Below are positions 29,588 to 38,076 of a stretch of 38,912 nucleotides of DNA, one piece after another; positions within the stretch are counted from its first letter, which is position 1; each line of letters opens with the position of its first letter. Source of the stretch: a virus. The stretch lies in the IMG/VR virus record IMGVR_UViG_3300010356_002141. One strand, given 5' to 3'. Below the pieces are notes generated by a model that saw nothing but the letters and a program-made list of their open reading frames with translations, searched no databases and was not told the origin of the DNA. The position numbers and the translations under genes are program-made.

Positions 29588-29616
29588 TTGCCTAAGTCAA
29601 GCGATATCTGTATAAT
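29588..29616 (+). promoter_or_regulatory. Sigma70-like promoter, TTGCCT-17 nt-TATAAT
   Basis: Read directly from the sequence. Confidence 0.6.
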
Positions 29617-29627
29617 ACTTGTTAAGT

Positions 29628-29640
29628 AACCTTGCAAGTA
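29628..29640 (+). promoter_or_regulatory. Motif variant AACCTTGCAAGTA (12/13)
   Basis: Lies 11 nt after the -10 element and 5 nt before the ATG at 29646. Confidence 0.6.
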
Positions 29641-29645
29641 ACACA

Positions 29646-29795
29646 ATGAAGATAGATATATTTTTAGTAATCATCATGCAACTTGTCTGTACGATATGGA
29701 TTATACAGACAATAGAACAACATTCAGTTCATCCTGTTTACGCTAAAAAGATAGAAAATGCCAGTTATACATGTCAACCTTGGGATTCATGCTAA
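29646..29795 (+). CDS. 49-aa hydrophobic/secreted peptide (not in the ORF track)
   Basis: Hand translation gives MKIDIFLVIIMQLVCTIWIIQTIEQHSVHPVYAKKIENASYTCQPWDSC. No SD is visible. Its stop lies 3 nt before the next ATG. Confidence 0.45.
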   Translation: MKIDIFLVIIMQLVCTIWIIQTIEQHSVHPVYAKKIENASYTCQPWDSC

Positions 29796-29798
29796 TTT

Positions 29799-31142
29799 AT
29801 GAAAAAGAAACAAACATTTATTACGCGTAAGACTATTAAAACTGAGGCAATTGATATAGTACAGAATGTTGTTAAACCAAAAACAGAAAATTCACCATTA
29901 GTTGCCAGTTCTCCATTAAGATTTACTAATACACCTACAATAACTACTGATGATGATGAGAATTTTATTAATGTAGATGTGGAAATTCCAAAATCAGATA
30001 AAATTATTTATGATTTAGACGATTATATGTCTAGTGGAGACTTAAACCAGTTAAGTCAAATATCAGAACAGGAATATATAGAAACAAGTAAACTTATAAA
30101 TAATTCTTCTAGTTGTAATTTAGAACTAGTAAAAAGATTAGGTGTAAGCTGTTTAGTGGCTACAGGTACAGGTCTTGCAATGATGCCTATTTTTAACTAT
30201 TTGGTTAAAAATTCTGAACAATTTGGGATAGATGTGCATAATAATCAAATTATTTTTGACTTATCAACTGCGAACACTTTTATAGTAGCCTCATTCTCAT
30301 CATTTGTTACGATGAATGAATTTATAAAAAAACACCAACAAACTAAATTAGATAATGACAGTTTTATAATTGCATTAAGTAAAGTATGTGCTAGTTTTTC
30401 TCTAATTCTTCCTTTAGGTTTGCTTTGGATTACTGAAGTGAACAATCAAAAAATAGCTGAATCCAGCGGTTTTGATCAATTTATGGCATGGGCTACTTTT
30501 ACTACATTACCACTTATTGTTAATCAAACAGTAGAATCTATAACTAATGTTAATAAGGTTTTAGAAGCTAAAAATCTTGAAATGATCAATTTAAATGATA
30601 ACGAAGTTGTAAATCGTATTAGCATAGGGAGTAAAATTGTTATATATGGATTAGCCGCCACATCTTTAATAGGTAGATCAATTGCTTATACAGAAGCTTG
30701 TAAGGCTTTAGCCTTGGTAAGTGGAGTTAATGAAGAAGTTGCTTTGGGTTTGGGGATTGCTTTAGGGGGTATATTAACGTCTTCAGGAGTGTCGATATTA
30801 GAATATAACAACATCAAAATTCTTTTTGAAACAACAAGTAATAATTTTACACTAAAAAAAGCAATAATCGGTACTGTAGCTTTAGCGGAAGGTGTCTGGT
30901 TTACTCTTCCTTTAGTTTCACTAGGTTTAAATGCTACTGAAGAATGGAATACTTTATTAAAAGGTGGCTTGTTTATTCCGCTTTTAGCCTCTCATACAGT
31001 TTTAGAATCTACAAGAATATACGATAATGTATCATCAATTTCTAATTATATTTCAGATGGTTTTTCATCTTTAAAAGATTGGTGTTTTGGTAGTGATGAT
31101 ATTCAGCTTGCAGGGGATAATAATGATTATTCTAATGAATAA
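29799..31142 (+). CDS. Polytopic membrane protein (about 8 TM segments) with a ~115-aa soluble N-terminus
   Basis: 447 aa with repeated hydrophobic 20-25-aa segments. I recognised no family. Confidence 0.6.
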   Translation: MKKKQTFITRKTIKTEAIDIVQNVVKPKTENSPLVASSPLRFTNTPTITTDDDENFINVDVEIPKSDKIIYDLDDYMSSGDLNQLSQISEQEYIETSKLINNSSSCNLELVKRLGVSCLVATGTGLAMMPIFNYLVKNSEQFGIDVHNNQIIFDLSTANTFIVASFSSFVTMNEFIKKHQQTKLDNDSFIIALSKVCASFSLILPLGLLWITEVNNQKIAESSGFDQFMAWATFTTLPLIVNQTVESITNVNKVLEAKNLEMINLNDNEVVNRISIGSKIVIYGLAATSLIGRSIAYTEACKALALVSGVNEEVALGLGIALGGILTSSGVSILEYNNIKILFETTSNNFTLKKAIIGTVALAEGVWFTLPLVSLGLNATEEWNTLLKGGLFIPLLASHTVLESTRIYDNVSSISNYISDGFSSLKDWCFGSDDIQLAGDNNDYSNE

Positions 31143-31148
31143 ATTTTA

Positions 31149-37587: not shown

Positions 37588-37601
37588 AATACGAGGAATC
37601 T

Positions 37602-37838
37602 ATGAGTACAAAACAAGAACTAATTGATCACATGAATGAAGAAAATACTGAGATGAATGCTTTAGTTGCACAGAAAACTCAACAAAAATCTGATATTGAT
37701 GCTGCAATTGCTCAGCAACAAGCAAATATTGATTATTTTAATGGTCAAAAAGATCAATGCGACGTAGATATTGCTGCATATCAGGTAAATATTAGTAAAA
37801 ATGATGAGATTATAGCTATTTTAGAAGCTAGTAGTTGA
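37602..37838 (+). CDS. Small coiled-coil protein (fibre assembly/chaperone candidate)
   Basis: 78 aa, Q/A/D-rich heptads, SD (gagga), directly after the fibre genes. Confidence 0.4.
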   Translation: MSTKQELIDHMNEENTEMNALVAQKTQQKSDIDAAIAQQQANIDYFNGQKDQCDVDIAAYQVNISKNDEIIAILEASS

Positions 37839-37862
37839 TTAAATACTAATTTTAGTTATAAT
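37835..37862 (+). promoter_or_regulatory. Sigma70-like promoter, TTGATT-16 nt-TATAAT
   Basis: Read directly from the sequence; overlaps the stop of the 78-aa gene. Confidence 0.55.
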
Positions 37863-37878
37863 ATCTTTAATATAAATT

Positions 37879-37891
37879 AACCTTGCGAGTA
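37879..37891 (+). promoter_or_regulatory. Exact copy of motif AACCTTGCGAGTA
   Basis: Lies 16 nt after the -10 element and 5 nt before the ATG at 37897. Confidence 0.65.
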
Positions 37892-37896
37892 AAATT

Positions 37897-38076
37897 ATGA
37901 ATCCAATTGAGATAGTTCAAAGTTTACCTAAACACATGCAGGCTTTATACAGTGATGCAGTGTTATTTCTTTCTAATGAGTCAACAATAGCAACTCCTGA
38001 GCGTAAAACTCTTTTATTAAATAATATCCAATTTATAAAAGCTCAAATTGAGGCTTTAGAAAAAGCCATAGGTTAA
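37897..38076 (+). CDS. 59-aa hypothetical protein (not in the ORF track)
   Basis: Hand translation gives MNPIEIVQSLPKHMQALYSDAVLFLSNESTIATPERKTLLLNNIQFIKAQIEALEKAIG. No SD is visible. Confidence 0.5.
   Translation: MNPIEIVQSLPKHMQALYSDAVLFLSNESTIATPERKTLLLNNIQFIKAQIEALEKAIG

Follow-up and report, generated by a model that had tools for sequence, protein, structure and literature searches.

The short motif that precedes several late operons in the phage genome analysed here may be the target of a phage antisense RNA, in which case a replication counter-transcript would pair with it in trans at the ribosome-binding position and repress the late operons. We assign this reading, which was drawn from sequence analysis, a probability of about 0.5. 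Only tentatively do we put forward the wider proposal that one antisense RNA acts as a genome-wide repressor in a phage of an obligate intracellular Rickettsiales bacterium, that the motif, as the copied complement of its 13-nt loop sequence, has replaced the ancestral Shine-Dalgarno (SD) sequence at the ribosome-binding position of the first gene in nearly every late operon, and that replication control and late translation are coupled with no protein repressor. The analysed stretch of DNA (the window; 38,912 nucleotides, IMG/VR record IMGVR_UViG_3300010356_002141) is a complete circular podophage genome related to the Megaira phage MAnkyphage.

Motif cassettes at three start codons

The original prediction described three cassettes in which a sigma70-like promoter, the motif and an ATG follow one another, and the window sequence has this architecture at 29588, 31149 and 37835. 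In cassette 1 (29588-29648, plus strand), TTGCCT-17-TATAAT (29588-29616) was followed after 11 nt by AACCTTGCAAGTA (29628-29640) and, 5 nt further on, by ATG 29646, which opens a 49-aa ORF with the 447-aa membrane protein coming next; in relatives, the promoter of this cassette (29588) stood directly before terL. Cassette 2 (31149-31212, plus strand) comprised TTGTAT-17-TATAAT (31149-31177), a gap of 13 nt, AACCTTGCGAATT (31191-31203) and, after 6 nt, ATG 31210, the start of terL. Cassette 3 (37835-37899, plus strand) comprised TTGATT-16-TATAAT (37835-37862), a gap of 16 nt, AACCTTGCGAGTA (37879-37891) and, after 5 nt, ATG 37897, the start of a 59-aa gene at the head of the portal operon.

The promoters had been described as good sigma70-like pairs. 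TTGTAT at 31149, however, matched only 3 of 6 positions, and across the AT-rich window genome sigma70-like matches occurred at the chance rate (84 versus 83 expected). The cassette promoters are credible because their hexamers were conserved across relatives while the spacers varied, and not because of their score. The same pattern indicates that the motif is transcribed.

GGAG, GAGG and AGGA were absent upstream of all three ATGs, as had been claimed, and so was AAGG. GAG alone remained at SD distance, which falls short of an SD as defined here (complementarity to the anti-SD CCUCC over at least 4 nt, located 5-9 nt upstream of the start codon). Most other genes had been said to carry a strong SD; an SD-like 4-mer was found in about 31 of 53 genes, and about 40% had none. 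In distant relatives, a true SD (TGCGAGG or ACGAGG) stood at the position of the motif. Leaders with an adjacent ATG were unstructured (folding z about 0), and no self-structure of the motif was found within them.

The motif set across the genome

The three cassettes are part of a larger motif set. The 13-mer AACCTTGCGAGTA had at least six strong copies in the window, and at up to 3 mismatches it had 22 copies versus 9 expected. Its most conserved part, the 8-mer AACCTTGC, which is distinct from the SD-like part, occurred 11 times against about 0.7 expected; nine of these copies were co-directional with transcription, and most were intergenic. CCTTGCRA was found 10 times versus 2.0 expected, a count that none of 100 shuffles attained. 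Beyond the cassettes, perfect 13-mers were located at 2546 (plus strand), 17329-17317 (minus strand) and 22383 (plus strand), and AACCTTGC was also present at 17773 (minus strand) and 22162 (plus strand), together with weaker copies. No ATG was adjacent to any of these.

In the MCP leader (2493-2558, plus strand), TTGACA-17-CATAAT (2493-2521), the top sigma70-like site within bases 1-20000, was followed after 24 nt by a perfect motif (2546-2558). This copy is contained in the 3' end of gene 1715-2599 and precedes the MCP ATG (2812) by 253 nt, and the site at 2493-2558 was conserved in the relatives L001, L002 and L009. The leader of the lysis cassette (17317-17380, minus strand) carried TTTAAA-17-(TG)TATACT (17380-17352) and a perfect motif (17329-17317), with an imperfect inverted copy at 17343-17355, a hairpin and U-run downstream of the motif, and the holin ATG at 17220; in the relative L102, the motif stood 5 nt upstream of the holin ATG. 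A further intergenic copy, AACCTTGCAGCTA (17761-17773, minus strand; family D6), was co-oriented with transcription and lay 36 nt upstream of the ATG of a 104-aa gene, and no promoter was evident upstream of it.

The motif had been assigned to the packaging operon. This proved too narrow, as MCP, lysis, tail-fibre, rep and moron units were headed by it besides terL and portal. Because the MCP, lysis and rep-leader copies have no ATG nearby, the motif is not simply a start signal. Terminator-like hairpins were found 8-55 nt downstream of several copies without an adjacent ATG. Motif positions were conserved in L001 and in IMG/VR relatives while the flanks varied. Across the family, about 27 non-redundant sites had the motif at SD distance from an ATG, and coupling to the start codon at 4-6 nt was seen in about 7 independent gene contexts.

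A scan of IMG/VR for the motif-plus-ATG pattern returned 72 matches, nearly all of them chance occurrences in coding sequence of unrelated phages; the genuine ones belonged to members of this phage family only. Genome contigs scanned for TerL yielded just one contig of Candidatus Megaera venefica plus MAG contigs that were mis-binned; host context was missing from all of them. The motif was absent from the early promoter at 21619-21645.

A predicted minus-strand transcription unit in the rep leader

A search of phage-encoded RNAs for complementarity to the motif, which the original prediction had proposed, located the exact complement in the rep-gene leader, where it forms the loop of a minus-strand stem-loop that is conserved and lies between a conserved promoter and a conserved terminator. 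The gene (22527-23120, plus strand) encodes a replication initiator with an O-like or DnaD-like winged helix. Its leader holds the master motif copy AACCTTGCGAGTA (22383-22395, plus strand), the best conserved of all copies, within a block of 14-15 nt that was invariant in 16 of 16 relatives.

Sequence comparison showed that this leader carries a candidate transcription unit on the minus strand, made up of a conserved sigma70 promoter, the stem-loop (SL-B) and an intrinsic terminator. The candidate promoter P(-) (22477-22505, minus strand) consists of TTGACA (22505-22500), 17 nt and TAATGT (22482-22477), with a predicted start near 22470. In all 16 relatives, TTGACA was invariant and TAnnnT was found at 17 nt, and the flanks varied. 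SL-B (22364-22416, minus strand) has a stem of 10-14 bp and an apical region that displays the anti-motif UACUCGCAAGGUU. In an alignment of relatives, 93.8% of the helix cells were paired on the minus strand versus 79.9% on the plus strand. Two compensatory pairs (CG to UA or the reverse) were observed, and the G·U pairs (20 cells in 6 columns) in no case favoured the plus strand. The minus-strand fold was better by 3-11 kcal/mol in 13 of 15 variants. SL-B was thus selected on the minus strand, which shows the anti-motif. The predicted loop contains a GNRA-like mini-hairpin, C[GCAA]G, that could limit pairing.

The intrinsic terminator T1 (22196-22228, minus strand; stem 22228-22205 plus U-run) is the likely 3' end of a predicted antisense RNA of about 275 nt. 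Its stem occurred in three compensatory versions, each with a U·G pair for which the plus strand would have C·A, and its U-run was present on the minus strand only. An extra bidirectional terminator, T2 (22330-22352), was found in the window; it was not conserved, and it could yield a form of about 140 nt. The putative antisense RNA folded with z = -4.1. Three features of plasmid ctRNAs were therefore represented here by conserved elements: a promoter opposite the rep leader, an antisense stem-loop with a complementary loop, and an intrinsic terminator on the antisense strand. A second long hairpin, SL-A (22140-22196), has AACCTTGCA (22162-22170) in its loop; it was present in a subset of relatives with compensatory changes and showed no clear strand preference.

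Rfam returned no family for the whole window at gathering thresholds, and for the rep-leader region at permissive E-values all matches were well below the family gathering score. A tRNA/tmRNA scan of the window was negative.

Covariation and predicted pairing of loop and targets

The L026 clade has a different rep module with the same layout and its own motif variant (GAGATT). In its rep leader, minus-strand TTGACA-18-TATAAT was followed by a hairpin, formed on the minus strand only, with AAUCUCGCAAGGAUC in the loop. The dispersed copies of this clade had CCTTGCGAGATT in common, and those of the window clade AACCTTGCGAGTAA. Since the clade-specific variants were shared by the master copy and the dispersed copies, both covary. 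L001 was mosaic: its loop is of the GAGTA type, yet its terL and lysis sites are GAGAT, which leaves 9 bp. A search for a GAGAT-type rep leader with the window-type stem arm gave one unrelated match, and the GAGAT master was found in L026 instead.

RNAduplex comparison of whole translation initiation regions with the whole predicted antisense RNA (277 nt) was uninformative because of long AU-rich pseudo-duplexes, and a loop-only energy scan of all sense transcripts was used instead. The best trans matches, at 17332 (minus strand), 2536 and 37876, reached -26 to -28 kcal/mol, whereas the background did not go beyond -23 kcal/mol. Complementarity to the loop extended over 13-16 nt at 2546, 17329 and 37879 and over 8-12 nt at 29628 and 31191. 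Pairing over just 8-11 contiguous nt, within the background of the energy scan, was available to the copy at 29628 and, in most relatives, to the terL copies (AACCTTGCAATTT).

Proposed mode of action

We propose that the minus-strand RNA is made from about 22470 to 22196 and targets the rep leader as a counter-transcript. The loop sequence UACUCGCAAGGUU would, in addition, bind other phage transcripts in trans through the motif copies at their 5' ends, namely those of terL, portal, MCP, lysis, tail fibre and moron. In unstructured, SD-less leaders with the motif 4-6 nt upstream of the AUG, a duplex of 12-16 bp would mask the site at which the 30S subunit binds and keep translation from starting; a duplex far from an AUG may affect transcript stability or termination instead. 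Overall, the replication-control RNA would serve as a brake on late-gene expression, with repression as the presumed direction and the timing likewise presumed. The earlier suggestion of translational control by a factor masking the motif agrees with this in that the motif does occupy the ribosome-binding position and a candidate trans-acting RNA exists in silico.

Any minus-strand transcript across 22383 carries the complement of the motif trivially, so that the case for a function in trans is built on the invariant loop and on a single covariation at clade level. A loop that had only its cis target to match could drift, so the invariance of the master block in 16 relatives points to extra targets. 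Loop invariance and clade covariation are also expected from a co-evolving protein; searches of Pfam, PHROGs, NCBIfam and PDB found no DNA- or RNA-binding protein tied to the motif.

Comparison with known regulatory RNAs

To our knowledge, RNA-based regulation in phages has been described in only a few cases, among them P4 CI, P1/P7 c4, lambda OOP and P22 sar, with one or two targets each. The nearest precedents for the RNA proposed here are P4 CI and P1 c4. If the antisense reading is right, a replication counter-transcript would have a multi-operon late-gene regulon whose targets stand in for the SD. This would be a new regulatory layout that couples genome copy number to the lysis decision with no protein repressor, and it would provide a first mechanistic handle on the restraint of phages in unculturable endosymbionts (Megaira, Rickettsiales). 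Motif and loop form a pair that could be tested by compensatory mutagenesis in a surrogate host.

Plasmid copy number is controlled by ctRNAs such as R1 CopA/CopT, ColE1 RNA I and those of pT181 and pIP501. The predicted unit resembles them in its antisense promoter in the rep leader, in its intrinsic terminator and in a stem-loop whose loop would make the first contact with the complementary loop of the rep mRNA; copy-number control would be its expected role. Classical ctRNAs act on their own rep mRNA only, whereas the loop sequence here is copied at the heads of late operons. In P1 and P7, where the prophage is a plasmid, the c4 antisense RNA blocks expression of a lytic-pathway function (PMC8201110). 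This RNA of immI controls icd-ant by base-pairing through short complementary boxes located at, or close to, a ribosome-binding site. Only one operon is targeted by c4, which RNase P releases from the same transcript; no match to Rfam C4 was found here.

In satellite phage P4, the immunity RNA CI (whose seqB pairs with seqA and seqC) shows that a phage RNA rather than a protein can keep genes off, including replication genes of a plasmid-like element (PMC4825925). The likeness lies in a short stem-loop sequence that pairs with repeated complements in phage transcripts. CI arises by processing of the very sense transcript under its control; its two targets belong to a single operon, and its mode of action is premature termination. 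The counter-transcript predicted here, in contrast, would come from its own promoter and have at least six genome-wide sites, mostly at ribosome-binding positions; no sequence or Rfam similarity was found. Like CI and c4, the predicted RNA is complementary to at least two separate target sites. Maturation from a sense leader does not apply, given its own antisense promoter.

Alternative explanations

A serious rival, which we nevertheless consider unlikely, is that the motif is an asymmetric DNA operator for a monomeric repressor, phage- or host-encoded, that would sit immediately downstream of strong sigma70 promoters or in short intergenic spaces and block promoter escape or elongation in an orientation-dependent manner. 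The operators and stoperators of L5 gp71 and the operators of P1 C1 are asymmetric 13-mers, many per genome, located at promoters and in short intergenic spaces and oriented with transcription (PMC9283540). The motif agrees with the L5 description: it is a 13-bp asymmetric element whose multiple dispersed copies are co-oriented with transcription and lie for the most part in short gaps between genes. Where a credible promoter is present, they fall at about +4 to +30; two copies lack a promoter. The inverted motif pair overlaps the lysis promoter, copies in one genome evolve in concert, and a motif-free early promoter is expected if only a subset of promoters is silenced. The L5 and P1 sites, however, are bound by a known two-domain repressor, and sequence searches of the early-region proteins (Pfam, PHROGs, NCBIfam, PDB), several of which are unannotated, detected no L5- or C1-like repressor. 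A winged-helix regulator at the switch position was not conserved between the window and L001, both of which bear the motif, and an RHH protein was absent from L001 and the GAGAT clade. A DNA operator also leaves unexplained why the best-conserved copy lies in a minus-strand-specific hairpin loop between an antisense promoter and a terminator in two independent rep modules, and why the motif is coupled to the start codon. We regard it as rather improbable that the motif acts as an operator at the RNA level, where a protein recognising its sequence in the single-stranded leader would repress or activate translation (compare T4 RegA) and the loop copies in the rep leader would be extra sites or decoys. 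The sense orientation of 9 of 11 copies, the SD distance from the ATG, the unstructured leaders and the display of motif copies in rep-leader hairpin loops would suit such a protein, and phylogenetic profiling found one co-occurring candidate, a 72-aa protein (26378-26596) present in all motif-bearing loci that cover the region and absent from motif-less ones. This protein is acidic and without database matches, its co-occurrence is confounded by phylogeny, no RNA-binding domain was found in any phage protein, and the strand on which SL-B was selected displays the anti-motif and not the motif.

The earlier idea of an unconventional initiation signal, which would recruit ribosomes in place of an SD through another 16S region or through a weak GAG SD in a special context, now appears very unlikely. 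The motif does occupy the SD position where canonical SD 4-mers are missing, the extended SD that distant relatives carry ahead of the corresponding genes is homologous to its 3' half, TGCGAG, and 9 nt are complementary to E. coli 16S rRNA at positions 897-905. This was the only 16S match; it was marginal (4 of 100 shuffles were as good), comes from a species that is not the host, and falls in helix 27, which lies buried within the 30S subunit. Among the strong copies, half (perfect ones included) stand too far from any start codon and are not followed by a conserved small ORF, the motif-less relative L023 has an equivalent AT-rich, SD-less terL leader, the lack of an SD is common among the phage genes, and AACCTTGC is not SD-like. 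We give equally little credence to the idea that the motif serves to recruit a processive antitermination factor, or as a pause site for it, with loading early in every operon (as at RfaH ops or lambda nut boxA). Such a site would account for the orientation specificity, the location early in the transcribed region, the variable promoter distance and the terminator-like hairpins after several ATG-less copies. Most ATG-adjacent copies, however, run straight into long ORFs that show no obvious terminators, proteins of the NusG/RfaH, N or Q type were not detected, and the minus-strand RNA features would be unexplained.

Several other readings were rejected. A uORF starting from the TTG of the motif was inconsistent in frame and stop between sites and relatives. 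By eye, no consistent -10 was seen downstream that would make the motif a sigma32-type or other -35, and no GG at -24 as in a sigma54 promoter; a -10 element for leaderless mRNAs was ruled out by the conserved upstream sigma70 hexamers with variable spacers. No sigma-like or RNAP gene was found in the phage. Upstream of rep, the copies occur at irregular intervals of 51-151 bp with terminators between them, which speaks against Rep-protein iterons. Better iteron candidates were located inside gene 23234-24664.

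Motif cassettes, promoters and additional copies

Re-reading of the sequence showed that the three promoter-motif-ATG cassettes are present exactly as claimed in the original prediction: TTGCCT-17-TATAAT from 29588, 11 nt, AACCTTGCAAGTA, 5 nt and ATG 29646; TTGTAT-17-TATAAT from 31149, 13 nt, AACCTTGCGAATT, 6 nt and the terL ATG at 31210; and TTGATT-16-TATAAT from 37835, 16 nt, AACCTTGCGAGTA, 5 nt and ATG 37897. No Shine-Dalgarno (SD) 4-mer lies upstream of any of them, as had been stated; the companion claim that most other genes have strong SD sequences was only partly borne out, an SD-like 4-mer being found in only ~31 of 53 genes. 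Sigma70-like pairs in general occur in this genome only at chance rate (84 matches vs 83, and 77 vs 85), but hexamer conservation makes the proposed ones credible: upstream of terL in ~25 relatives, the -35 (TTGCYT) and TATAAT are kept, while the spacer and the 10-14 nt gap from -10 to motif vary freely. The same pattern indicates that the motif is transcribed, at roughly +4 to +30. In relatives L004-L018, the 29588-type cassette directly adjoins terL. In the window and relatives L002 and L003, a 49-aa ORF and a 447-aa multi-pass membrane protein (no family match) are inserted behind this promoter, and terL has gained a second promoter-motif cassette; the 29588-31210 arrangement is a moron-type insertion by which the regulatory unit was duplicated.

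The set of three places proved too small. CCTTGCRA was found 10 times against 2.0 expected (0 of 100 shuffles reached 10), and the invariant motif core, the 8-mer AACCTTGC, 11 times against ~0.7 expected from base composition, running along transcription in 9 of the 11. Additional perfect 13-mers lie at 2546 (+), 24 nt past TTGACA-17-CATAAT (no promoter match within bases 1-20000 is better) and 253 nt upstream of the MCP start codon; at 17329-17317 (-), upstream of the holin/lysozyme cassette; and at 22383 (+), within the leader of rep, which encodes the replication initiator. Further AACCTTGC copies are at 17773 (-) and 22162 (+), with weaker ones at 22058, 22434 and 29776 and another at ~22312-22313, which was read from the sequence and is absent from the mismatch-search listing. 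The three additional perfect copies have no start codon within reach and are followed by no conserved small ORF in relatives; the MAnkyphage locus (L001) and other relatives carry the motif at positions corresponding to the window's additional copies.

Across the family, the ATG of a real ORF follows TTGCGAG by 6-8 nt at ~27 non-redundant sites, spanning ~7 independent gene contexts (terL, portal-operon leader, 49-aa gene, tail fibre, 74-aa gene, 158-aa gene and, in L102, holin). The 3' half of the motif is variable (GAGTA, GAGAT, AATTT or GCCAT). Beyond this phage clade, the motif-plus-ATG pattern gave chance matches only. The identical 13-mer AACCTTGCGAGTA stands 5 nt before an ATG in three unrelated IMG/VR phages of 61% GC (L108, L109 and L156), preceded by a TGGCAC-like sequence in a layout kept between two diverged contigs; this is probably chance.

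A putative antisense unit in the rep leader

The search of phage RNAs for complementarity found the complement of the motif in the rep leader, in the loop of the minus-strand stem-loop SL-B (22364-22416). The 22383 copy sits inside a block of 14-15 nt with inverted repeats on either side. Sixteen distinct relatives share this block unchanged, in the midst of variable non-coding DNA. When both strands were folded, the minus-strand version of the SL-B hairpin had the greater stability in 13 of 15 variants, with a margin of 3-11 kcal/mol. In a 12-sequence alignment of its 13-pair helix, 93.8% of cells were paired on the minus strand vs 79.9% on the plus strand; two pairs showed CG<->UA compensation, 20 cells in six columns held G·U pairs whose plus-strand equivalents are C·A, and no column favoured the plus strand. 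Upstream on the minus strand is a candidate promoter, whose -35 TTGACA (22505-22500) is invariant in 16/16 relatives and is followed after exactly 17 nt by TAnnnT (TAATGT in 11/16; TAATCT, TACTCT, TACCCT, TAGACT or TAACGT in the other five). Downstream, the minus-strand terminator T1 (22228-22205 plus U-run) occurs in three compensatory stem versions, each with a U·G on the minus strand only. The predicted 143-nt form (22472-22330), ending at terminator T2, had a folding z of -4.1; in the predicted 277-nt form, which extends to T1, SL-B has the anti-motif UACUCGCAAGGUU in its apical region, with a mean unpaired probability of 0.59 vs 0.36 overall. The unit had no Rfam match, and non-triplet indels argue against a coding function. 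Comparison of these leaders showed that the rep leader carries a unit of predicted minus-strand promoter, stem-loop and terminator whose loop is the motif complement.

Two other repeat structures were seen in this part of the genome. A 34-nt inverted repeat (22063-22096 / 22288-22321; 76% complementary, 191 nt between arms) brackets T1 and a second hairpin, SL-A, and its arms include the weak motif copies 22058 and ~22312-22313; the repeat may give the leader a long-range structure. The 476-aa gene 23234-24664 holds two copies of GGACAAAAATGTYCA, 44 bp apart, in 23672-23797. They adjoin a perfect 13-nt inverted repeat (23761-23773, 23785-23797), with more A-rich repeats in the vicinity, and the region is a candidate origin of replication within a gene, in the manner of lambda.

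An independent arrangement in the GAGAT clade

We compared the window with L026, a relative carrying the GAGAT variant of the motif. Its Rep matches that of the window weakly (~24% identity over 110 residues), and the two rep leaders do not resemble each other in sequence. The L026 leader nevertheless has a motif copy, ATCCTTGCGAGAT, ~65 nt before rep. Its minus strand carries TTGACA-18-TATAAT, as well as an 11-bp hairpin that forms on that strand only and has AAUCUCGCAAGGAUC in its loop. CCTTGCGAGATT is common to the dispersed copies of the GAGAT clade at terL (L024, L026, L082) and the portal operon (L024), and AACCTTGCGAGTAA is common to the window clade, where it is the clade's own master sequence. 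Rep-leader master and dispersed copies covary here, as one clade-level event. L001 is a mosaic that combines a GAGTA loop with GAGAT sites at terL and lysis, leaving 9 bp.

Proposed mechanism and alternative explanations

We propose, with a probability of roughly one half, that a phage antisense RNA from the rep leader targets the motif copies. The minus-strand RNA would be made and act as a replication counter-transcript, and its loop would also pair in trans with the dispersed copies. A seed with several targets is expected to be invariant, as this loop is; an antisense pair acting purely in cis would be free to drift. In a loop-only scan of all sense transcripts, the top sites were 17332(-), 2536 and 37876, with energies of -26 to -28 kcal/mol, and no background site was stronger than -23 kcal/mol; the copies at 29628 and 31191, with 8-12 paired nt, are not set apart from that background. 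If only 4-6 nt separate the end of the motif from the AUG, the duplex would mask the 30S site, repressing initiation; leaders with an ATG-adjacent motif are unstructured. At copies far from an ATG, the duplex could alter stability or termination, and a hairpin with U-run lies downstream of the 17329 copy. The system was read in silico throughout, in the window and relatives. Such an RNA would work similarly to P4 CI RNA, which pairs through a stem-loop sequence with its repeated targets, seqA and seqC (PMC4825925), and would resemble P1/P7 c4 RNA (PMC8201110) and plasmid counter-transcripts. By its predicted features it is not a member of these families: it lacks Rfam similarity, it has an antisense promoter of its own, and its targets, at ribosome-binding positions, would be many and dispersed.

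The motif does occupy the ribosome-binding position, as originally predicted, yet by its conservation pattern it has become something other than an SD. Distant relatives (TerL ~70% identical, including a Candidatus Megaera venefica contig) have ACGAGG(A/T) or TGCGAGG 4-8 nt before the ATG of terL, tail fibre, portal-operon leader and MCP genes, and the L032 rep leader has two ORF-less copies of this type (all sites: L032 896, 996, 7077, 11059, 13787 and 17398; L083 6722, 11217, 13833 and 14657). The 3' half of the motif (TGCGAG) is therefore homologous to an extended SD minus one G, and the distant arrangement may be the ancestral, SD-containing version of the system; the best-conserved part is the clade-specific 5' half, AACCTT. 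That the motif is an unconventional initiation signal is very improbable: half of the strong copies lack a nearby start codon, and the motif-less L023 (TerL 82% identical) also has an SD-less terL leader, 24 nt and AT-rich, after its TATAAT. The search against 16S rRNA did return a 9-nt match, to E. coli helix 27, but it was marginal (4/100 shuffles) and from a non-host. An asymmetric DNA operator of the L5-gp71 or P1-C1 type would agree with the asymmetric 13-bp site, its dispersed copies and their rule of orientation; we consider it unlikely, since a search of Pfam, PHROGs, NCBIfam and PDB with the early-region proteins gave no repressor candidate, the switch-region regulator is not common to the window and L001, and the minus-strand RNA features and ATG coupling would be left unexplained. 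Doubtful to a greater degree is an RNA-binding translational regulator, and an ops/nut-like antitermination site ranks as low as the initiation signal.

Neighbouring features and genome context

A 72-aa acidic protein (26378-26596; annotated 'transcription factor' in OP381185) is encoded in every motif-bearing relative covering its region, was undetected in the motif-less L022, L023, L029 and L032, and had no match in Pfam, PHROGs, NCBIfam or PDB. At 27390-27460, two near-palindromic 13-mers, TACCTAAAAAGTA (27418-27430 and 27440-27452; period 22), come immediately after a strong promoter, TTGTCA-16-TATAAT, and the second of them overlaps another TATAAT. The element has ACCT....AGTA in common with the main motif, is kept as TACYTWAAAAGTA in six relatives (L012, L014-16, L019, L033), and resembles a classical pair of dimer operators; the 68-aa gene at 27484 lies downstream of it. 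In the holin leader (17195-17275, -; z = -4.6), a 31-nt inverted repeat (17204-17234, 17244-17274) sequesters the start codon at 17220 in a long hairpin; this leader also has CUCGCAA, the motif-core complement, ~60 nt downstream of the 17329 motif.

Bases 1-127 repeat 38786-38912, and the window is therefore a complete circular genome (38,785 bp, 33% GC). In GenBank it has a single close relative, Megaira polyxenophila phage MAnkyphage_25.80 (OP381185, locus L001), a podovirus that has T7-like tail genes but lacks a gene for RNA polymerase. The TerL search gave ~30 close IMG/VR relatives and, among bacterial genomes, matched only a Candidatus Megaera venefica contig and mis-binned MAG contigs. 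No integrase was seen in the window, and L001 encodes a resolvase and a RelE/CopG pair, which suggests a plasmid-like or carrier lifestyle. Plus-strand genes run from ~21700 round the circle to 15148 and minus-strand genes from 21553 down to 15145; TTGACA-15-TATAAT at 21619-21645, with TG directly 5' of the -10 and without the motif, lies upstream of a CCDC90-like 81-aa gene and is probably the early rightward promoter.
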